From the NCBI GenBank assembly GCA_022072205.1, contig JAJVID010000143.1, forward strand, positions 727 through 64,726: a DNA stretch of 64,000 nucleotides, given 5' to 3'. Source of the DNA: Acidobacteriota bacterium. GTDB taxonomy: Bacteria > Acidobacteriota > Blastocatellia > RBC074. The position numbers and the translations under genes are program-made. Shown piece by piece: positions 4,424 to 63,062 of this stretch. Every line of letters starts with the position of its first letter. Position 1 is the stretch's first letter. The notes beneath the pieces are model-generated. The model was not told the origin of the DNA, made no database searches, and saw nothing but the letters and a program-made list of their open reading frames with translations.

Positions 4424-5167
4424 ATGGTAAAGATTGATGACACGAACAACCCTGGGAAATACGAACGAGACGAATTTTCTCCGAACGAGTACACTGCCGG
4501 CGAACAGAGCGGTGGCCCCAGAGGTTACTCACTCCAGTTCGATGACGACGACCGCGATCCCTGGAACTACGATGATAATTACCGCCGCGATAAAGATCTG
4601 GACGACGATGACGATGATTATCTGAAAGACGAAGACGAGGTGGAGATCGAAGAAGACGACGATAGGTTCAGCGATGAAAAACCCGGCAGCCCCGTTTGGC
4701 CCGGACACAGCGTTGACCAGGAGGAAGAAGAACCTGCTCCAGTTGTCTCAACCGTCTTGTCACCCCCGGCGCCGGAACCCGCGCCAATTCCGGCGGCTGC
4801 TGAACCATCGGCCCCGCCAGCCGCAAAGCCTGCCAGGAAACCGGCCAAGAAAGCTGCAAAGAAAGCTGCGAAGAAGGCTGCGAAACCAGCTAAGAAGGCT
4901 GCTAAGAAAGCCGCCAAGAAAGCCACCAAGAAGGCTGCGAAACCAGCTAAGAAAGCCGCCAAGAAGGCTGCTAAGAAAGCCGCCAAGAAGGCTGCTAAGA
5001 AAGCCGCAAAACCGGCTAAGAAAGCTGCTAAGAAAGTAGCCAAGAAAGCTACAGCCAGGAAAGCCGCAAAACCGGCTAAGAAGGCGACCAAGAAGGCGGC
5101 CAAGACTGCTAAGAAAGCCGTGAAGAAACCAGCTAAGAAGGCTGCCAAGAAAGGCTCCAGAAGATAA
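4424..5167 (+). CDS. bipolar nucleoid-type protein: acidic N-terminal half plus histone H1-like (AKKA)n C-terminal half
   Basis: AAGGAGG SD lies upstream of the ATG. Residues 1-110 are D/E-rich (DDDDDDYLKDEDEVEIEEDDD). Residues 135-247 are repeats of type KPAKKAAKKAAKKAAK. Confidence 0.8.
   Translation: MVKIDDTNNPGKYERDEFSPNEYTAGEQSGGPRGYSLQFDDDDRDPWNYDDNYRRDKDLDDDDDDYLKDEDEVEIEEDDDRFSDEKPGSPVWPGHSVDQEEEEPAPVVSTVLSPPAPEPAPIPAAAEPSAPPAAKPARKPAKKAAKKAAKKAAKPAKKAAKKAAKKATKKAAKPAKKAAKKAAKKAAKKAAKKAAKPAKKAAKKVAKKATARKAAKPAKKATKKAAKTAKKAVKKPAKKAAKKGSRR
4826..5164 (+). repeat. coding low-complexity repeat (AAG AAA GCY GCN, Lys/Ala tract)
   Basis: Imperfect 12/24-nt repeats of aagaaagccgccaagaaggctgct encode the AKKA tail. 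Confidence 0.8.
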
Positions 5168-5280
5168 GCCAAAGCCGCTGATGATCTCCGATCAGTCAGC
5201 GGCCTTCGCATCTTATGAAGTTGGCGAGAATGGCGCCGAAATGAAAAAGCGGACGGGTCTTTTCACTTGGGTGAAAGGGT

Positions 5281-6330
5281 CTAGTCCGCTTTTTGTGTCC
5301 TTGTTTTGCGATTGAAAAGTTCGGCGGCGAGTTTGATGGCCGCGACCATGCTCGAATGGTCCGCTCTGCCCTGCCCCGCGATGTCGAACGCTGTGCCGTG
5401 ATCAACTGAGGTGCGAATGAACGGTAGGCCGAGTGTGACATTGACCGCTTCACCGAATGAAAGGCATTTGACAGGGATCAATCCCTGGTCGTGGTAGCAC
5501 GAGATAACGATGTCGAATTCCCCACGCGCCGCTCTTACGAAGATTGTGTCACCGGAGTGCGGCCCGCTGACATCTATGCCATCCTGTTCGCGGCAGGATT
5601 CGATGGCCGGGAGCATCTCTGAAGCTTCTTCAAATCCAAACAGAGTTCCTTCTCCGCCATGCGGGTTCAGTGCGGCGACCGCGATGCGCGGATGATCAAT
5701 CCCGTAAACTGTCAGTTCACGGTGGATCAGGCGGATCAGTTTCTCAATCTCCGGCTTTTTGACATAGCTCGAGACATCGGCGAGCGGGACGTGTGTGGTG
5801 AGCAACGCGACTCGCAGCATCGGCGAGATGAACGTCATAGCGAATTCATCCGTTTGCGCCAGATGCGCCAGAAATTCAGTGTGGCCAGGGAAGTGATAGC
5901 CGGCCAGATAGAGGGATTTTTTATTTATTGGCGCAGTGGTAATCGCGTCGAGATGACCTGAGAGGCAAAGGTCGGTTGCAACTTCAATAAATTGGGCGGC
6001 TGCGCGGCCACACTCCACCTGTTCGCGGCCCATCTCAATCGAGCCGGGGACATTGTTCAAGTTATAAATGATTGGCGCGTCCGAATTGAGGGGGATGGGA
6101 TCGCCTGCGTTTAAACAATAGAAACCGCGATTCAAGTTGAAAACTCGCGCCCAGTGCGACAGGTACTGAGCATCGCCGATGATGACTGGCGAGCACGCGG
6201 TAAGGACTTCTTCTTCGGCCACTGCTTTGAGCGTTATTTCAGGGCCGATGCCAGCCGGATCACCTATCGTGACACCGACACGCGGCTTTGCCCTCACCGC
6301 AATAGAACTTGTGTCCGTGTTCGCCGCCAT
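5281..6330 (-). CDS. pdxA: 4-hydroxythreonine-4-phosphate dehydrogenase
   Basis: Motifs GDPAGIGPEI, TAPINK, FPGHTEF, LNPHGGE, YHDQGLIP and SVDHGTAFD. Confidence 0.9.
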   Translation of the reverse strand: MAANTDTSSIAVRAKPRVGVTIGDPAGIGPEITLKAVAEEEVLTACSPVIIGDAQYLSHWARVFNLNRGFYCLNAGDPIPLNSDAPIIYNLNNVPGSIEMGREQVECGRAAAQFIEVATDLCLSGHLDAITTAPINKKSLYLAGYHFPGHTEFLAHLAQTDEFAMTFISPMLRVALLTTHVPLADVSSYVKKPEIEKLIRLIHRELTVYGIDHPRIAVAALNPHGGEGTLFGFEEASEMLPAIESCREQDGIDVSGPHSGDTIFVRAARGEFDIVISCYHDQGLIPVKCLSFGEAVNVTLGLPFIRTSVDHGTAFDIAGQGRADHSSMVAAIKLAAELFNRKTRTQKAD

Positions 6331-7150: not shown

Positions 7151-7246
7151 AAAATCAAAAGGCAAAAATCAAAGGGCGAAAGTAAGAGGACGAATTTGCA
7201 GTCCAGAACTTTTGCCCTTTGATTTTTGCCTTTTGATTTTTGATTT
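7151..7246 (-). repeat. heptad-periodic palindrome immediately after the ftsZ stop (probable terminator)
   Basis: Arm 7151-7177 (aaaatcaaaaggcaaaaatcaaagggc) is the exact reverse complement of arm 7214-7240, with a 36-nt loop. Both arms have 7-nt periodicity (tttgccc tttgatt tttgcct tttgatt tttgatt). Confidence 0.85.
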
Positions 7247-11210: not shown

Positions 11211-12596
11211 TCAACTCTTCATCGCTTCCAGAAATTCTTCCCCGGCCCGCCAGACATTGCCTGCGCCCAGCGTCAACACCAGATCGCCCGGTTCAACCGA
11301 ATCCAGCAATGCCTGTTTGCCCTGCTCGACTCCGCCGATGTAACGCGCGTTGCGATGCCCGAACTTTTCGATCTCTTCGGCCAGAGTCTGCGAGTTGACG
11401 CCGGGAATCGGGTCTTCACTCGCGGCGTAAATATCGCACAGCAACACGACATCGGCGTCATAAAAAGACCGCGCGAAATCTTCGTGCAGCGCAGCCGTCC
11501 GCGTGTAACGATGCGGCTGGAACAGCGCCACAAGACGGCGTCCGCTGGATTTTGCCGCCGCCAGCGTCGCGCGAATTTCGGTCGGATGGTGACCGTAATC
11601 GTCAACCACCAGAATGCCGTTCCTCTCGCCTTCAATCAGACCTTTGATTTGAAACCGCCGCTCGGCGCCGCGAAACGCTTCAAGCCCTTCGGCGATGACC
11701 TGGAAATCAACTTCCAGATCGAGGCCGACCGCAACCGCCGCCAACGCGTTGAGCACGTTGTGTTCGCCGGGCACGTGAAGTCTGATCCGTCCAAGCTCTT
11801 CGCCTTTGCGCCGCACCGCGAAATCGGAGCCGAAATTCTCGCGCGAAATCCGCACATCGAAAGCCGAAATCTCAGCGTGCGCCCGCATCCCGTAAGTAAT
11901 CACGCGCCGCGCAATCTGCGGAATGATCATCTGGATGTTCGAATCGTCCAGGCAAATGATCACCGAGCCGTAAAACGGAACCTTGTTGACGAACTGCACG
12001 AAGTAAGAGCGAATCTCTTCGATGCCGGAATAAAAGTCCAGATGCTCAAGATCAATGTTCGTGACTACGGCGATGGTCGGCGACAGCTTGAGAAAACTTT
12101 TGTCGCTCTCGTCGGCTTCGACCACCATAAAATCGCCGTGCCCCAGTTTGGCGTTGCTGCCGATGGTGTTGATACGGCCACCCACAACTATCGTCGGGTC
12201 GAGGTCAGCGCGGTCGAGCACAGTCGCCACCATCGAAGTTGTGGTCGTCTTGCCGTGCGATCCGGCGATGGCGATGCCGTATTTCAATCGCATCAACTCA
12301 GCCAGCATCTCGGCGCGCGGAATCACGGGAATCTGACGCCGCACCGCCTCGGCAACTTCGGGATTGTCGGCTCGCACCGCCGTCGAAGTGACGACGACCT
12401 GCGCGCCATCAATGTTACTCGCGCCGTGACCTTCAAAGACGCTCGCTCCCAACCCGCTCAATCGTTCGGTGATCACTGAAGCCTTCGCGTCGGAACCAGA
12501 GACGCGATAGCCCAGATTTAACAACACCTCCGCTATGCCGCTCATCCCGATGCCGCCGATCCCTACGAAGTGAATGTGCTGGTACTTTTTGAACAT
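11211..12596 (-). CDS. murC: UDP-N-acetylmuramate--L-alanine ligase
   Basis: [17 protein letters not shown] and [14 protein letters not shown] 12594-12596 ([10 protein letters not shown]) is taken as start. The longer track ORF reads through the repeat element from a TTG. Confidence 0.92.
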
Positions 12597-12597
12597 A

Positions 12598-12658
12598 GTG
12601 GTTGGTGGTTGGTGGTTGGTGGTTGGCCTCTTGATACCAACCACCAACCACCAACCAC
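12598..12658 (-). repeat. GTGGTTG/CAACCAC heptad hairpin filling the murG-murC junction
   Basis: (gtggttg)x4 at 12598-12625, loop gcctcttgata, then (ccaacca)x3 c at 12637-12658. The arms are complementary over 22 nt. Confidence 0.9.
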
Positions 12659-13830
12659 TACTCTCTGATTCTCATCGCCAGATCAACAACGCTCTTCGCC
12701 GCGTCCGGATGCCCCAGCCTCCTGCTGGCTTCGGCCATGCGGTTCAATTGATGCGGATCGCGGATGAGCCACAACAACTCTTTCGCCAAACGTTCGGGCG
12801 TCAACTCGGCTTGCAGAATCATTCGGCCCGCTCCGGCGCGCTCAATGGCTTCAGCGTTTTTGCGCTGATGGTCGTCAGCGGCGAACGGAAACGGAATCAT
12901 AATCGCCGGTTTGCCCGCCGCCGCAAGCTCCGCCACGGTGGTCGCCCCGGCGCGGCTGATGACCAGATCGGCGCGGGCGAATTCATCAACCATCTTTTCA
13001 ATAAAAGGCTTCACCTCGGCGTCCATGCCTGAATTTTCAAAAGCGTCGCGCACGCGGTAAAAATCGTTCTCGCCGGTTTGATGGGTGAACGACAGACGGT
13101 CTTTCTCTTCCGCAAGCAGAGGCAGCGCGCCGGCCACCGCCTCGTTGATCGCGCGCGCGCCCTGGCTGCCGCCGGTGACGAGCACGTGAACCACCCCGTT
13201 TGGATGCCCTTCGGCATGTTTGACTGGAACGTCAAAAAACTCCGCGCGAACCGGATTGCCGGTGATCTCGGCCTTCTCGCCGAAAAACCTTCTCGCTTCT
13301 TCAAACGAGACGGCGGCGGCTTTGACGAATCGCGCGAGCACGCGATTGGTGAAGCCCGGCATCGCGTTCTGCTCGGCCACCAAAGTCGGCACTTTCATCA
13401 ACGCAGCCATCAACACAACCGGCCCCGACGCGTACCCGCCGACGCCGATCACCACATCCGGCCTGACCTGTTTGATCAAAGATCGAACGGCAAGAAAACT
13501 TTTCGGCAGCATCAACAGCGACTTGACGCGTTTGACGATGCTGACGCGTTTGAGCGCGGCCACTTCGATCAATTCCAGATTGAATCCCTCGCGCGGAATG
13601 ATCTTCGTTTCAAGCCCTCTGGCCGTGCCCACGAAAAGAATCTGCGTATCCGCGTCGCGCCGCCTGAACTCCTGCGCGATGGCGACGCCGGGATAAATGT
13701 GCCCGCCAGTGCCGCCGCCAGCAATGATGACAGAGAGCGGGAGAGCGCTAGATCGCGAGAGCGCGAGAGCGGAGGACCCCACTGCGCCTTGCTCTCTCGA
13801 ATTTGACGCCTCTTGTCTCGATTCGCTCAT
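12658..13830 (-). CDS. murG: undecaprenyldiphospho-muramoylpentapeptide beta-N-acetylglucosaminyltransferase
   Basis: [12 protein letters not shown] motif. The first 30 aa are encoded by the repeat element at the ftsW/murG junction. Confidence 0.9.
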
Positions 13831-13866
13831 CTCCCGCTCTCCCGCTCTCGCGATCTCCCGCTTTCG
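13732..13866 (-). repeat. 8-nt-periodic imperfect palindrome spanning the ftsW stop and murG start
   Basis: Left arm 13732-13774 (agagagcg ggagagcg ctagatcg cgagagcg cgagagcg). Right arm 13831-13866 (ctcccgct ctcccgct ctcgcgat ctcccgct). About 27 nt are complementary with a few mismatches. Confidence 0.8.
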
Positions 13867-22834: not shown

Positions 22835-22862
22835 ATTTGATATTTAATATTTGATATTTGAT
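22835..22862 (-). repeat. AT-rich heptad tandem repeat in the ftsL-ftsI spacer
   Basis: atttgat atttaat atttgat atttgat. Confidence 0.75.
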
Positions 22863-28221: not shown

Positions 28222-29178
28222 ATGGCTACAAAACCTTACGACCAGGCGTTCAAATTTCTCGCCGAGCAGGACCCGGAGAGTCTGTTATTGATGCTCGGCG
28301 CAATCGAACCGGACGAGAATGCCGTCATCGAATTGCTGCCGCGCGAAATCAGCGCGGCCGCCGTGTTGCCTGACCAGCCTTACCTCGTCACATCGGCGCG
28401 CGGCAAGCGCGTGGTTCACGTCGAAGCATGGACGAGATGGGAAAAGGAAATCCCGGATCGGATGGTCGAATACGGGCCGCTGCACTGGTTCAAGTATCTC
28501 CTGCCGGTGGACAGCTACGTCATTCTGCTGACGAAAAAAGGTCTGCCGCGTCGCCCGCCGCGGAGCGGAGTTATCAACGCAGGCGGCACGCGCATCGAGA
28601 CGCGCTTTCATCTGATCCGCGTTTGGAAGATTCCGGCGCGCAAGGCGCTTGAATCGGGACGACCGGCATTGCTGCCCTTCGTGCCATTGATGGACGGTGG
28701 GCGCGAAGAGTTGGAAGCAGGCGCCGAGGCGTTACGCTCAGTGCCTGACGAAAGGCAGCGCAGCGAGATGGGCCTGCATTTTGTGATGCTCGGAGGCCTG
28801 CGCTACAATGACATTGACCTGCTGAAATTGCTCGTCGGAGGAACGTCTATGATGCCAATCGAACGATTACGCGAGTCGAGTTTCTATCAATCCATTCTCA
28901 GAGAAGGACGCGAAGAAGGACGCGAAGAAGGACGCGAAGAAGGACGCGAAGAAGGACGCGAAGAAGGACGCGAAGAGGAAAGACTTAGATTGCTGAAAGT
29001 CACTGCCGATAATTTACGCCAATTGATTGCTAAGCGCTTTCCCAGTATTCAAATCGGCAAAGAACTCGAAGCAATCAGCGATCTCGACATTTTGCAGCGT
29101 TTGTTCATCGAACTCGATGATATCCACGATCCTGACACACTCCGTCGCAGGATTTCCGAATTGGCCACGATGACTTGA
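28222..29178 (+). CDS. Rpn/YhgA-like PD-(D/E)XK putative nuclease/transposase with DUF4351-like tail
   Basis: The N-terminus YDQAFKFLAEQDP...VVHVEAWT...RMVEYGPLHW resembles the Rpn family. C-terminus has an (EGRE)n tract then LRQLIAKRF...LDILQRLF. Start taken at ATG 28222. Family assignment is from memory of motifs, not from a search. Confidence 0.55.
   Translation: MATKPYDQAFKFLAEQDPESLLLMLGAIEPDENAVIELLPREISAAAVLPDQPYLVTSARGKRVVHVEAWTRWEKEIPDRMVEYGPLHWFKYLLPVDSYVILLTKKGLPRRPPRSGVINAGGTRIETRFHLIRVWKIPARKALESGRPALLPFVPLMDGGREELEAGAEALRSVPDERQRSEMGLHFVMLGGLRYNDIDLLKLLVGGTSMMPIERLRESSFYQSILREGREEGREEGREEGREEGREEGREEERLRLLKVTADNLRQLIAKRFPSIQIGKELEAISDLDILQRLFIELDDIHDPDTLRRRISELATMT
28903..28974 (+). 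repeat. perfect 12-nt tandem repeat x6 inside the Rpn-like CDS
   Basis: gaaggacgcgaa repeated six times without mismatch, encoding EGREEGREEGRE... Confidence 0.95.
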
Positions 29179-30788: not shown

Positions 30789-32303
30789 ATGAAACGAGTG
30801 ATTTTTCAACTCACCCGCACGCTGACGATGATTGCCCTGGCGACGCTGTTGGCCGGTTTGGCGCAGGCTCAAGCGCCCGGCGGACAGGCGCAGCGTCCGT
30901 CCACCAAGGGCACGGTGATCAAAGGCAAAGCGCCCGTCAACAAGGAAGTCCTCAAAGTCAAACTGCCGAAACCTTACGAAACCAAATTGAGCAACGGCTT
31001 GCAAGTGCTGGTGCTGGAAAACCACAAGCTGCCGCAGTTCAACATGCAGATGGTCATCCTGAGCGGCGGCCTGGCCGATCCGGCGGATCAACTCGGCGCG
31101 GCGCAATACACCGCCACGATGCTGCGCGAAGGCACGCAAACGCGCGACAGCAAGAAGATCGCCGAACAGATTGATCAACTCGGCGCCTCGCTCAGCGCCA
31201 ACGCCGGACTATCGTCGCTGACCAGCGTGGTTTCGGCTTCCGGCCTGACCGACAACTTCGATCCGATCATGGAGTTGTTCGCCGACGTGATCCTCAATCC
31301 GAGCTTCCCGGCGGAAGAGTTCAACAAACTGAAATCGCGCAACCTCGCGCAGATTCGTTTGCAGCGGTCGCAGCCGGGCTTCCTGGCCGCCGAGATGTTC
31401 ACGAAGGTCATGTACGGCTCGCATCCGGCGGCGCGCTTCGCCCTCTCGGCGGAACAGATCGGGCGCATCACGCCCGAGTCGCTGCAAAAATTCCACGCCG
31501 CGAACTACAAACCGAACAACGCCATCTTCGCCATTGTCGGCGATGTCAAACCGGCGACGGTCATAGCCAAACTCGAAAAGGCTTTCGCTTCGTGGAAGCC
31601 GGGCGAGGTTCCAAAAACCGAGATTCCTAAAGTGGCTGAGACCGGCGCGGCCAAAATCTACCTGATTGACCGTCCCGGCTCGGTCCAAACCAACCTGGTG
31701 GCCGGAACGCTGACCATCGAACGCACCGACCCGGATTACTTCGCGCTTGAGATGATGAATCAAGTGGTGGGCGGCGGCCCGAGCGCCCGGCTGTTTATGA
31801 ACCTGCGCGAAGACAAGGGCTACACCTACGGCGCCTACAGCAACGCCTCATCGTCCAAATACCGGGGGCGATTCCAGGCCAACACCGAAGTCCGCACCGA
31901 CGTGACCGACGGCTCGATGAAAGAGTTGCTCTACGAATTCAAGCGCATCCGCGACGAAAAGATTCCGGCGGAGGAGTTCGACCGCGCTCAACGCACGATC
32001 ATCGGCGGATGGGCCTTGCAGCTCGAATTTCCGCAATCGGTCTTGCAGAACGCCATCACGTCGAAGCTTTACGGCCTGCCGGCGGATTACTGGGACACTT
32101 ATCCGCAGAAGATCGCCGCAGTCACGCCCGAGGATGCGCAGCGCGTGGCGCGGAAATACCTCGATCTCGGCAAGTTGCAAATCGTCGCAGTCGGCGACGC
32201 TAAAAAGATCGCAGGCGCGCTCAAGGCTTACGGCGCAGTCGAGCTTTACGATACCGAAGGCAAGCCGCTACAATCGCCTTCCGTTGAAGCGAAGACAAAA
32301 TGA
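30789..32303 (+). CDS. M16 family peptidase-like protein (non-catalytic partner, no HxxEH)
   Basis: Signal peptide and M16 fold-like sequence. The HxxEH position reads AAQYTATMLREG. It lies 18 nt after the catalytic subunit gene. Confidence 0.8.
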   Translation: MKRVIFQLTRTLTMIALATLLAGLAQAQAPGGQAQRPSTKGTVIKGKAPVNKEVLKVKLPKPYETKLSNGLQVLVLENHKLPQFNMQMVILSGGLADPADQLGAAQYTATMLREGTQTRDSKKIAEQIDQLGASLSANAGLSSLTSVVSASGLTDNFDPIMELFADVILNPSFPAEEFNKLKSRNLAQIRLQRSQPGFLAAEMFTKVMYGSHPAARFALSAEQIGRITPESLQKFHAANYKPNNAIFAIVGDVKPATVIAKLEKAFASWKPGEVPKTEIPKVAETGAAKIYLIDRPGSVQTNLVAGTLTIERTDPDYFALEMMNQVVGGGPSARLFMNLREDKGYTYGAYSNASSSKYRGRFQANTEVRTDVTDGSMKELLYEFKRIRDEKIPAEEFDRAQRTIIGGWALQLEFPQSVLQNAITSKLYGLPADYWDTYPQKIAAVTPEDAQRVARKYLDLGKLQIVAVGDAKKIAGALKAYGAVELYDTEGKPLQSPSVEAKTK

Positions 32304-32306
32304 AGA

Positions 32307-32404
32307 ATGGTGGTTGGTAGTTGGTGGTTGGTGGTAGAGACGTAAAATTTTACGTCTCTACCACCAACCACCAACTACCAACCACCAACCACTAACCACC
32401 AACT
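32307..32404 (+). repeat. perfect 80-nt palindrome of TTGGTGG/CCACCAA heptads, extending to the next start codon
   Basis: 32308-32347 is the exact reverse complement of 32348-32387. Units are atggtgg ttggtag ttggtgg ttggtgg on the left and ccaccaa ccaccaa ctaccaa ccaccaa ccactaa ccaccaa on the right. The ATG at 32405 follows 2 nt later. Confidence 0.95.
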
Positions 32405-32809
32405 ATGTCTGAAATCAAAATCAGAGTTCTGTTAGCCAAGCCCGGACTGGACGGGCACGACCGGGGCGTCAAGGTCATCGCCCGCGCGCTGCGCGACGCG
32501 GGAATGGAAGTGATCTACACCGGCTTGCGTCAGACGCCCGAACAGATCGTCAACGCCGCGTTGCAGGAAGACGTAGACATCATCGGGCTTTCGATCCTGT
32601 CGGGCGCGCATATGACGATCTTCCCGCGCGTGCTCGACCTGATGCGTGAAAAAGGTATGGACGATGTGCTGCTTTTCGGCGGCGGCATCATCCCCGAAGA
32701 CGACATCCCGAAACTCAAGGAGGCTGGGGTCGGCGCAGTTTTTCTGCCCGGCGCTTCAACCGAAGACATCATCAAATACATCCGCGAGAACGTGAAACCA
32801 CGCGAATGA
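32405..32809 (+). CDS. cobalamin (B12)-binding domain protein, acyl-CoA mutase small subunit
   Basis: DxHxxG motif ([27 protein letters not shown]) and SILSGAH. Confidence 0.9.
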
Positions 32810-32827
32810 TCCGAGCGTGTCCAAACG

Positions 32828-33496
32828 ATGTCCTCCTCAATTCTGCTCACCGAACACGGCCATCACGCGATCATCACGCTCAACCGCCCGTCGCGACTCA
32901 ATTGTCTGACCAGAGAATTGATGGAAGAGTTGGCCGAAATCATCTTGAATCTGAGCCGGAACGATAGTCTGCTCGCGCTGATCATCACCGGCGCAGGCGG
33001 CCTCTTTTCTGCGGGCGCCGATTTGAGCGAAGTCGCCGCGCTCGATCCAACGACGGCTTTTGGATTTTCACGGCGAGGACAGGCGATCCTGGCTTCGCTC
33101 GGCGACGCAGCGCTGGTCACCATCGCCGCGATTGACGGTCATTGTCTGGGCGGTGGGCTGGACATTGCGATGAGTTGCGACCTGCGATTCGCCACGCCGC
33201 GCGCTACGTTTCAACATCCCGGCGCCAAACGCGGCATCATCACCGGCTGGGGCGGCACACAACGATTGCCGCGAATCGCCGGAGTTGACGCCGCACGCCG
33301 AATGCTCATCACCGGCGACCGCATTGACGCTGAAGAAGCGCATCGCCTCGGCCTCGTCAACAAAATCTGCGACGACGCGTTGGATCACGCCTGCCGGTTC
33401 GCCGAGCGCGTTTCAGCGAAATTCACGAGGGAACAACTCCTGGCCATCAAAACGGCCCTGGATCAAGGGAATTCATGCTTTCCGCTCAAACCATAA
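32828..33496 (+). CDS. enoyl-CoA hydratase/isomerase (crotonase) family protein
   Basis: [16 protein letters not shown] and [15 protein letters not shown] motifs. Short form (222 aa). Confidence 0.8.
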
Positions 33497-43525: not shown

Positions 43526-43542
43526 AATGTCTCCTTGAAAAA

Positions 43543-43624
43543 GGGCATGGAGTTCAAGCTTTAGCTTGTGACCGCCATCTTCGGGCGACTCAAAGCCGCA
43601 AGCTGAAGCTTGAACTCCATGCCC
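43543..43624 (-). terminator. long stem-loop between the two BNR genes
   Basis: gggcatggagttcaagctt (43543-43561) pairs with aagcttgaactccatgccc (43606-43624), a 19-bp perfect stem that extends imperfectly. T-runs lie on both sides. Confidence 0.5.
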
Positions 43625-43668
43625 TTTTTTATTGTTCCAGAGCGTCGCCAAGCGACATGGGCGACTCC

Positions 43669-57665: not shown

Positions 57666-58280
57666 TCAGATTTCGTGGCGGTTGGCGAGAGCCTTGTGCA
57701 TCGTCACTTCGTCGGCGTATTCGAGATCGCTGCCGACGGGCAGCCCCATTGCGATGCGCGTGATGCGGAAGCCGAGCGGTTTGAGCAGGCGCGCCAGGTA
57801 ATTCGCCGTAGCCTCGCCTTCGGTGTTCGGGTTTGTGGCGAGAATGATTTCCTTAACACTGCTTTCGCCGCTTTCGTTCGGGCGCAGGCGTTCAAGCAGG
57901 TTTTTGATCCGAAGCTCTTCGGGGCCAATGCCTCTGATCGGCGAAAGCGCGCCGTGCAGGACGTGGTAGAGGCCGTGATACTCGCGCGTCTTTTCAATCG
58001 CCACCAGATTGTAAGGCTCTTCGACGACACAGATGACCGACCGATCGCGCGAATGGCCGGAACAGTAACGGCAGGGATCAACGTCTGTCAGGTTGTTGCA
58101 GGTAGAACAAAAAACGATCTTCTCTTTGACTTCGCGGATAGCTTCAATCAGACGGTCGGTCTCTTCCTGAGGCGCCTTGAGCACATGAAACGCCAGCCGC
58201 TGCGCCGATTTGTGACCGATGCCGGGCAGCCGTTTAAATTCATCTATGAGTTTTGTTACAGGTTCTGCGTAATCGAGCAT
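57666..58280 (-). CDS. recR: recombination protein RecR
   Basis: HhH motif [15 protein letters not shown], zinc finger [16 protein letters not shown], and Toprim domain. Confidence 0.93.
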
Positions 58281-58283
58281 AGT

Positions 58284-58368
58284 GGAATGGGGAATGGGGA
58301 ATGGGGAATGGGGAATGGGGATGGAATCTCAAGCTTATTCCGCATTCTGCATTCCGCATTCCCCATTC
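58284..58368 (-). repeat. GGAATGG heptad hairpin filling the ybaB-recR junction
   Basis: (ggaatgg)x5 at 58284-58318, then ggatgga atctcaa gcttatt, then ccgcatt ctgcatt ccgcatt ccccatt at 58340-58367. The arms are complementary at about 28/32 positions. Confidence 0.9.
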
Positions 58369-62471: not shown

Positions 62472-63062
62472 GTGTCTTCTTCGTACCAGAAATTCATAAA
62501 ACAGGTAGATGAACTCGCCGCGAAGCTACAGGCGCGTTACTCGAACCATCTGGTTTGCCGCGCGGGATGCAGCGGATGTTGCCACCATCATCTTTCCGTT
62601 TTCACCGTCGAAGCAGAAGCTGTTCGCGCGGCGATTGAAAATATGCCCGCTCAGGTTCGCGCTCGTGTGGAAGCGCAGGCTCGTGAAGTCATCGTACGCG
62701 AAGCTCAGGGCGAGACGGTAGCCTGTCCGCTGCTGCTTGACGACCGTTGTTCGATTTACGAATCGCGCCCGCTGATCTGTCGAACCCAGGGGCTGCCGTT
62801 GTTGATGGAGGCGGAGGACGGCGAACAGGAAATTGATTTCTGTCCGCTGAATTTCACCGAGGCCGGCGCGGTTGATGATCTGGATGAAAATCATCTTGCG
62901 CCGCTCGACCAGTTAAACTTGCGGCTGGCGCTGGTGAATTTGCAGCATTGCCGCGAAACGGGACTGGCGGATGGCGCGAGTGGCGAGCGCGTGAAGATGG
63001 CCGACATCGCGCTTGAATCTCAGACCTCAATCCCAAATCCCAAATCCCAAATTCAAGGCTGA
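62472..63062 (+). CDS. YkgJ family cysteine-cluster protein
   Basis: CRAGCSGCCHH and CPLLLDDRCSIYESRPLICR motifs. GTG start. Confidence 0.75.
   Translation: MSSSYQKFIKQVDELAAKLQARYSNHLVCRAGCSGCCHHHLSVFTVEAEAVRAAIENMPAQVRARVEAQAREVIVREAQGETVACPLLLDDRCSIYESRPLICRTQGLPLLMEAEDGEQEIDFCPLNFTEAGAVDDLDENHLAPLDQLNLRLALVNLQHCRETGLADGASGERVKMADIALESQTSIPNPKSQIQG
63029..63056 (+). repeat. AATCCCA heptad repeat at the 3' end of the YkgJ-like CDS
   Basis: aatccca aatccca aatccca aattcaa, bracketed by cttgaat (63012-63018) and attcaag (63051-63057). Confidence 0.8.

Follow-up and report, generated by a model that had tools for sequence, protein, structure and literature searches.

REP/BIME and REPIN elements of Proteobacteria are intergenic or intra-operon palindromes whose RNA stem-loops stabilise upstream mRNA. 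REPs themselves are conserved sequences of 20-40 bp that occur in high copy number and are moved by RAYT transposases. Closer to the locus studied here are the heptamer arrays of Xanthomonas. According to excerpts of Rehm et al. (2015, PMC4692102), GGGAATC arrays are 89-93% intergenic and form 70-75 inverted pairs per genome. The convergent pairs, able to form a stem-loop or cruciform, lie near the end of the upstream ORF, and their position is conserved between species while length and sequence vary (PMC4692102, same excerpts). The excess of heptamer simple sequence repeats (SSRs) in bacteria is attributed there to polymerase slippage (Mrazek et al. 2007, as cited in PMC4692102).

A further system comprises arrays of directly repeated TAACTGA that precede start codons in Beggiatoaceae, Cyanobacteria and Bacteroidetes (MacGregor 2015, PMC4679880). 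These arrays stand in 'forward' orientation and end a few nucleotides from the start, the largest class 1 nt upstream. Moreover, the genes downstream mostly lack a Shine-Dalgarno sequence (SD), close strains differ by 7-nt increments, and a post-transcriptional role has been proposed (PMC4679880). We found no specific description of heptad repeats in the literature on Acidobacteria or Blastocatellia.

Here we analyse a palindrome in a 64,000-nt stretch of DNA from Blastocatellia, a class of soil-dwelling Acidobacteriota; this stretch is referred to as the window. The palindrome belongs, as one copy among many, to a lineage-wide Blastocatellia class, which we term "heptad hairpins", consisting of inverted heptanucleotide arrays that fill the spacers between genes.

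The palindrome at the M16-to-B12 junction

Positions 32308-32347 and 32348-32387 had been predicted to form a perfect palindrome, and the repeat finder confirms two arms of 40 nt each, 100% complementary, with 0 nt between them (Table 1). The sequence directly 5' of the palindrome (32301-32307) reads TGA AGAA, which places the M16 peptidase stop 4 nt upstream of the stem. TRF resolves the arms at period 7 into TGGTGGT x4.0 (32308-32335) and ACCACCA x6.3 (32360-32403) with 89-90% matches; both arms are SSRs in the sense of three or more head-to-tail 7-nt copies. The variant heptad ACTACCA in the 3' arm mirrors TGGTAGT in the 5' arm. Two additional heptads had been expected to run to 2 nt before the ATG. 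The heptads are present, but they end 3 nt before it, and a partial third heptad reaches the ATG.

Table 1. Features of the palindrome region and further hairpins of the window.
Feature	Position	Strand	Basis
TGA stop of the upstream M16-family peptidase gene (30789-32303)	32301..32303	+	ORF list; Pfam Peptidase_M16 / M16_C
5' arm, G/T-rich heptads TGGTGGT TGGTAGT TGGTGGT TGGTGGT	32308..32335	+	TRF period 7; inverted repeat
Non-heptad palindromic core, halves AGAGACGTAAAA and TTTTACGTCTCT, A/T-rich centre, spacerless	32336..32359	+	sequence; within 40+40 palindrome
3' arm, paired part ACCACCA ACCACCA ACTACCA ACCACCA	32360..32387	+	sequence, inverted repeat, TRF
Unpaired continuation of the A/C array, ACCACTA ACCACCA ACT (17-nt leader)	32388..32404	+	sequence, TRF
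Downstream gene, 134-aa B12-binding domain protein, ATG start	32405..32809	+	ORF list; Pfam PF02310
murG-murC sister element, murG TAG stop through first base of the murC ATG	12596..12660	-	fold; Pfam MurG / MurC
Class member GGGGAAT / CCCCATT, from ybaB (stop + 2 nt) to recR (CACT, then ATG)	58285..58368	-	TRF; fold; Pfam
14-mer-armed hairpin, 4 nt after the ftsZ stop	7151..7242	-	TRF; fold z = -9.7; Pfam
Octamer-armed hairpin (CGGGAGAG... / ...CTCTCCCG), ftsW-murG junction	13733..13866	-	TRF

RNA folding of the region predicts a 38-bp stem closed by a 4-nt loop, with -82.5 kcal/mol and z = -14.4 against dinucleotide shuffles. The 17-nt leader lies outside the main stem in the MFE fold and pairs weakly with the start of the coding region; in an alternative, slipped register it pairs with the 5' arm at 89% (repeat finder). 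G-quadruplex and i-motif readings of the arms were set aside, since a duplex of -82 kcal/mol would outcompete two-tetrad G4s. RNase III cuts long helices, and stable stems block 3' exonucleases. The predicted helix, 38 bp and perfect, would exceed the ~20 bp or more of uninterrupted dsRNA that mark RNase III substrates. Thus, the anticipated helix of sufficient length is borne out in silico, and RNase III cleavage of the stem is plausible.

In contrast, the stem is not the "severe barrier to ribosomes" that the original prediction made of it. Since the M16 stop precedes the stem by 4 nt and the ATG follows it after 17 unpaired, G-free nucleotides, no ribosome must traverse it. The B12-binding gene, whose product has an N-terminus conserved in 29 related loci, indeed lacks an SD, as G is absent from positions -17 to -1. 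In T4 genes 25 and 38, an SD upstream of a hairpin is brought close to the start by the stem. This arrangement was rejected for the B12 locus, since inspection of 32288-32307, upstream of the hairpin, revealed no SD core.

At the Rfam gathering threshold, the whole window yields an SRP RNA and two tRNAs only, and the palindrome matches no family. Permissive thresholds around the palindrome return sub-threshold matches only, almost all to eukaryotic miRNA-precursor models and none to a bacterial family. A sigma-70 promoter scan gives one weak promoter-like site in the M16 coding end, which is at chance level (0.5 expected). A candidate TTGGTG-N16-TAAAAT promoter inside the palindrome, noticed by eye, was dropped because it has no equivalent in other class members.

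An exact look-up of the B12-binding protein retrieved 18 contigs. Two NCBI MAG contigs that match the window at 99.6% identity cover the whole element at equal length. Both carry one G-to-A difference in the G arm, at 32312, which turns the first heptad into TGGTAGT and leaves 39/40 positions complementary; the 40/40 perfection is limited to the strain of the window. De Bruijn assemblers stop at palindromes. The Logan contig L090 crosses the palindrome centre, and seven further short-read Logan contigs from different runs (L083-L089) end inside the C arm. All contigs covering the C arm agree in its six units. Across 10 independent assemblies from several studies, at 99.6-99.9% identity, there is no change in array length and hence none of the slippage in copy number between close strains that is typical of SSRs. 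The palindrome is therefore stable at the strain scale rather than hypervariable, and it is not an assembly artefact, because independent assemblies carry the same element. Class members are also present in contigs with long-read-style names (e.g. L015, L040, L044, L076), a label judged from the names alone.

Heptad hairpins in the window and across Blastocatellia

The window contains four or five members of the class, among them the palindrome together with its leader (32308-32404; Table 1). Its sister is the murG-murC element, with the heptads GTGGTTG x4.1 / ACCAACC x3.3 at 12598-12658 (TRF) and a perfect stem of 25-26 bp (z = -7.0). Here, the spacer is exactly one palindrome, which opens with the TAG and closes with the first base of the ATG. 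The stop codon of murG and the start codon of murC are predicted to pair at the stem base, the U of UAG with the A of AUG. TRF bears out that this element and the palindrome share their heptad, as originally predicted; the heptad alone is common to the two TGGTGGT elements, while loops, lengths and ends differ. In the ybaB-recR hairpin, the start-proximal arm is perfect and the distal arm decayed. In the hairpin behind ftsZ, the last gene of the division cluster, the 5' arm is A-rich and the 3' arm U-rich, so that it resembles a terminator and departs from the polarity described below. At the ftsW-murG junction, the arms are free of stop codons and ORF calling runs through them, so that the start of murG and the end of ftsW are uncertain.

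Several other repeats occur in the window. An ACTATG junction (array, ACT, ATG) is found at three unrelated genes, murC (12594-12599), the B12-binding gene (32402-32407) and recR (58278-58283) and recurs in the metagenome loci L150 and L157; general start contexts have no such preference. Unpaired arrays are (ATCAAAT)x4 at 22835-22862, in a spacer between co-directional genes with a GTG start 17 nt further on, and (AATCCCA)x3.4 at 63029-63052, which lies at the 3' terminus of an ORF, immediately ahead of a TGAATG junction. Coding repeats comprise Lys/Ala-rich AAGAAAGCTGCT units at 4825-5153 in ORF 4424-5167 and a coding-type perfect 12-mer x6.2 (AGAAGGACGCGA) at 28902-28976. Ordinary bidirectional terminator-like hairpins of the A5-stem-T5 type lie at 5244-5294 and 43538-43629.

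A search with the M16 peptidase provided 80 related loci, assigned to Blastocatellia / Pyrinomonadaceae (Acidobacteriota) by record title or gene content; the best match has 85% amino-acid identity. Four of them (L001, L006, L009, L039) carry GenBank MAG titles of Heliomicrobium, Heliobacteriaceae or Clostridia. As these loci are syntenic with Blastocatellia loci and their M16 proteins are 60-85% identical, the Firmicutes labels are probably wrong.

Together with the window, the 80 loci amount to 1.30 Mb. Period 7 predominates among the non-coding tandem repeats: TRF arrays of period 7 (93) and 14 (29) stand beside 23, 26, 18 and 14 arrays of periods 8, 10, 11 and 13, and those of periods 9, 12 and 15 fall largely in coding sequence. 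Of the arrays of period 7 or 14, 67/122 have an inverted partner no more than 160 nt away, and period 7 accounts for 24 of the 30 hairpins with tandem-repeat arms. The survey yields 31 heptad-armed hairpins in spacers, typically leading from a stop codon to an SD-less start. In co-directional cases, the stem begins about -5 to +10 nt from the stop, and the next start is about -2 to +11 nt from the stem. Loops of 6-160 nt and imperfectly matching arms are the norm, and arms reach up to 92 nt. Single genomes hold many different heptad units, which vary continuously, and some units recur across loci and genomes (GGTGGTT, GCGGATT, GCCGATT/GGCAATT, GTCATTT). Several class members sit inside conserved operons, at murG-murC, ybaB-recR, skp-fabZ and fabZ-lpxA, the last two in several Pyrinomonadaceae; heptad hairpins are therefore unlikely to be efficient terminators. 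Hairpins also exist where no start follows, for example after terminal or convergent genes (L029, 10350-10461). At L015 (18354-18616), we observed a nested hairpin of ~260 nt with two heptads per arm, (GGGGTCA)9 (ATTTGTC)5.6 / (GACAAAT)5.9 (TGACCCC)12.

M16-to-B12 synteny is retained in 29/80 loci. Most of these spacers hold a hairpin with tandem arms of ~7-nt units, and the unit differs between species. The closest relatives L004, L022 and L002 share a TGGTTGG-type unit in differing copy number, which is decayed in L005 and L003; in L022, the C arm consists of five perfect units and the G arm is decayed. Further afield, the units are GGGGAAT/GGGGAGT (L029), GAGCGGGAGAG (L019), TAAAGTC (L023), TAGTGGC (L035), GTTGTCG (L034), CTATCAG (L045), GATGCTG (L032) and GGTTCGT (L008, about 300 nt). 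Ordinary or MITE-like hairpins take their place in L001, L012, L017 and L018. Folding of every spacer revealed that those of at least 55 nt nearly always contain a hairpin (z <= -3.3 in ~21/24), and that spacers without one are only 3-32 nt long.

The class has a pronounced polarity. The original prediction had noted that the palindrome and the murG-murC element share a G-arm-first orientation relative to transcription. This is uninformative on the strand, since a palindrome reads identically on both; the real finding is that the orientation holds class-wide. Among 30 informative hairpins, 26 have a G/T-rich 5' arm and an A/C-rich 3' arm and 4 the reverse (p = 6e-5), and the same holds for 18/21 heptad hairpins in unrelated metagenome contigs (18 vs 3). 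Start-proximal arrays are A/C-rich in 18/24 cases, stop-proximal arrays G/T-rich in 21/28, and the start-proximal arm is the longer one in 6/6 TRF-resolved pairs. Among 81 metagenome (CCACCAA)n arrays, 10 are partnered, and the partner lies upstream in 10/10, giving the layout stop, G arm, loop, longer C arm, ATG. In one divergent gene pair from metagenomes, a C arm faces both starts. For unpaired (CCACCAA)n arrays from metagenomes, the two orientations with respect to starts (17 vs 15) carry no information, as GTG occurs within the G strand; the G-sense orientation follows stop codons 23 vs 8 times. Although the lineage uses SDs, whose cores peak sharply at -14 to -11 (214/614 predicted starts vs 42 in the control window), the genes behind heptad hairpins lack them.

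Origin and upkeep of the arms

Complementarity of the best stems ranges continuously from 0.78 to 1.00, and only 4/31 heptad hairpins are perfect, so that arm perfection, which had been considered as a possible general trait, is not one. This spectrum looks like birth and decay rather than upkeep of perfection. Consequently, the perfect stem cannot be taken as a sign of active maintenance, given also the 39/40 of the sister strains; the second half of that proposal, copying of one arm from the other, is still a plausible origin of the palindrome. Many decayed copies in relatives with no positional preference had been named in advance as the mark of neutral junk; the decay is there, but the positional preference is not missing.

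If selection acted on the sense RNA helix, mismatches should mostly be of the G.U type. In hairpins with assignable transcription direction, G.U-type and A.C-type mismatches number 18 vs 17, and in an independent metagenome set 17 vs 20. The resulting 35 vs 37 rests on 72 mismatches, with gapless registers and a transcription direction assigned crudely from ORFs. The evidence that variant heptads follow a mirrored order in the two arms is suggestive: 20/24 hairpins have fewer mismatches than permuted controls, at a Fisher p of 0.07 and with a bias from register choice. A spacerless, A/T-centred perfect palindrome is the expected trace of a recent fold-back copy.

We favour, at a probability of roughly 0.55, the view that the palindrome is a self-renewing SSR, generated by slippage and template switching and tolerated in spacers only with a G-free arm beside the start codon. 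This reading builds on what was observed, namely the class itself and its polarity, the graded decay, the symmetry of the mismatches and where the copies lie; from these, we infer mutational processes, a filter and RNA effects. At the DNA level, replication slippage would add or remove 7-nt units, and intrastrand template switching or arm-to-arm conversion would copy one arm from its partner. The arms could thus stay complementary while the unit drifts between species, akin to the concerted evolution of satellite DNA, and selection on the RNA would not be needed. The present copy was presumably homogenised recently, which would explain both its 40/40 complementarity and its spacerless centre. 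Selection would mainly act as a filter, letting those copies persist that have their G/T-rich arm after a stop and their A/C-rich arm before a start, as the polarity suggests. An A/C arm would be tolerated next to a start because it has no SD, no GTG, TTG or ATG and no tendency to fold on itself; it usually has extra unpaired units beside the ATG. In the mRNA, the 38-bp helix would lie wholly in untranslated spacer that ribosomes never cross, where it would serve as an RNase III substrate and a block to 3' exonucleases, and the B12-binding gene would be translated without an SD from its 17-nt unstructured, G-free leader. Two findings speak against this reading. Some 21/24 long M16-to-B12 spacers of deeply diverged species hold hairpins of unrelated sequence. 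As generic selection for a stem-loop would also predict such occupancy, a purely mutational model has to invoke a site that is hot or renews itself. Further, no strain-level slippage event was seen among the 10 assemblies, so that the slippage rate may be low.

The near-constant occupation of the M16-to-B12 junction by hairpins of unrelated sequence fits a selected RNA punctuation mark, a tentative alternative that we consider possible but unlikely. REP elements and phage T7 intercistronic sites set different mRNA fates for cistrons. Likewise, the stem would block 3' exonucleases and/or be cut by RNase III, giving separate fates to the mRNA of the two cistrons. Any stable stem would serve, which explains the sequence turnover, and the reading gains from stems that start 0-5 nt behind stop codons, from the stability and uninterrupted length of the predicted helix, and from hairpins after terminal or convergent genes such as those behind ftsZ and in L029. 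On the other hand, the wobble bias expected of a sense-strand helix is absent, stems far exceed the needed length, with many of them decayed, and a structure requirement by itself leaves the polarity unexplained.

The geometry of the murG-murC palindrome, which starts exactly with the UAG stop and ends with the A of the AUG, recalls a lineage-wide translational coupling. Here, the stem would juxtapose the stop and an SD-less AUG, and a terminating ribosome would melt ~10 bp and reinitiate across 60-300 nt. To our knowledge, stem-based stop/start coupling has no precedent in bacteria. It would be a bacterial counterpart of ribosome shunting, in which the melted stem base exposes the A/C leader. 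The short stop-to-stem and stem-to-start distances of co-directional cases, the missing SDs in a lineage that uses them and the positions in conserved operons with essential downstream genes all fit. However, repeat expansion inside an originally short spacer trivially gives identical geometry, some hairpins exist without a following start, the 17 nt before the B12 ATG are already unpaired in the fold and need no unmasking, and the mismatches again lack a wobble bias. We therefore regard this coupling as doubtful.

A mobile element of the MITE or REPIN kind that inserts into spacers appears quite improbable. Heptads such as GGTGGTT, GCGGATT and GCCGATT/GGCAATT do recur at several loci and genomes, and L017 and L018 have long MITE-like inverted repeats at the M16-to-B12 junction. 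Yet the two TGGTGGT elements of the window have only their heptad in common, units vary continuously, and inspection by eye disclosed neither a common core nor a target-site duplication. A function at the DNA level, as a cruciform or a site for a repeat-binding protein that affects supercoiling, replication or transcription, is a shade less credible still. For cruciform extrusion, a palindrome that is perfect and A/T-rich at its centre is ideal, and the symmetric mismatch spectra fit a constraint on DNA; the many units per genome nevertheless speak against a sequence-specific protein, most copies have a loop and imperfect arms, and the polarity follows the starts and stops of genes.

That the hairpin is a Rho-independent terminator of the M16 operon is very improbable. 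The strong stem directly after a stop and the functional unrelatedness of the flanking genes would suit a terminator. The stem is followed by ACCACTAACC, however, and not by a U-tract, a terminator scan of 31900-32900 found 0 terminator-like sites, canonical A5-stem-T5 hairpins occur elsewhere in the window, sister elements lie inside murG-murC and ybaB-recR, and the gap ahead of the B12 gene is too small for a promoter. Finally, a phase-variable contingency locus switched by SSR length, or an assembly artefact, is barely conceivable: SSR arrays beside a start are the classic contingency layout and palindromes can mis-assemble, but the array lengths agree in all 10 assemblies, two MAG contigs span the element, and the flanking genes are housekeeping genes.

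Overall, the palindrome resembles a repeat that renews itself and is tolerated in one orientation more than a device whose perfection is kept up for a purpose. Heptamer repeats are over-represented in bacteria, and Blastocatellia offer a rich natural data set with dozens of units per lineage. Should the polarity stem from a filter on translation starts, it would show directly which features an SD-independent leader has to avoid; if arm-to-arm copying keeps the arms complementary, heptad hairpins would be small bacterial counterparts of palindromes that evolve in concert. In practice, they break short-read assemblies and make ORF callers run through spacers. De Bruijn assemblies break up at such elements, and counts from short-read MAGs will be too low.

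Comparison with known repeat systems

The REP/REPIN type is defined by a conserved palindrome, a GTAG or CGTC head and a RAYT. The copies described here share only their heptad: unlike in REPs, the hairpin arms are tandem arrays, and conservation is limited to the 7-nt unit. As in the cyanobacterial STRR heptanucleotide repeats, 7-nt units are over-represented among long SSRs. Phylum and units differ, and neither hairpin pairing nor abutment on stops and starts is a defining property of STRR repeats.

The sense array of the palindrome resembles the TAACTGA arrays in that it ends at 32403-32404, directly before the ATG at 32405 of a gene without an SD. Its unit, ACCACCA, is neither TAACTGA nor a one-off variant thereof. 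The related locus L007 has (AACTGAC)x5, 3 nt before a start. TAACTGA arrays are direct repeats of one unit with one inverted case in 170, whereas start-proximal arrays in Blastocatellia usually have an inverted partner upstream; unpaired (CCACCAA)n arrays beside ATGs exist in metagenomes.

The likeness to the Xanthomonas pairs, as the excerpts of PMC4692102 present them, goes further: the palindrome consists of two opposite-strand arrays of one heptad, close together and intergenic. By the same excerpts, Xanthomonas uses one G4-prone unit genome-wide, while Blastocatellia have many units per genome. TGGTGGT, with GG runs only, lacks the GGG run of this G-quadruplex type, for which GGGGAAT at 58285 would qualify. 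In contrast to the pairs in those excerpts, Blastocatellia hairpins fill stop-to-start spacers inside operons. The polarity of 5'-G/T and 3'-A/C arms seen in Blastocatellia is not mentioned for Xanthomonas in the excerpts of PMC4692102. What is new relative to the known cases is the multitude of units per genome, the stop-to-start hairpins in essential operons, and the 5'-G/T, 3'-A/C polarity.
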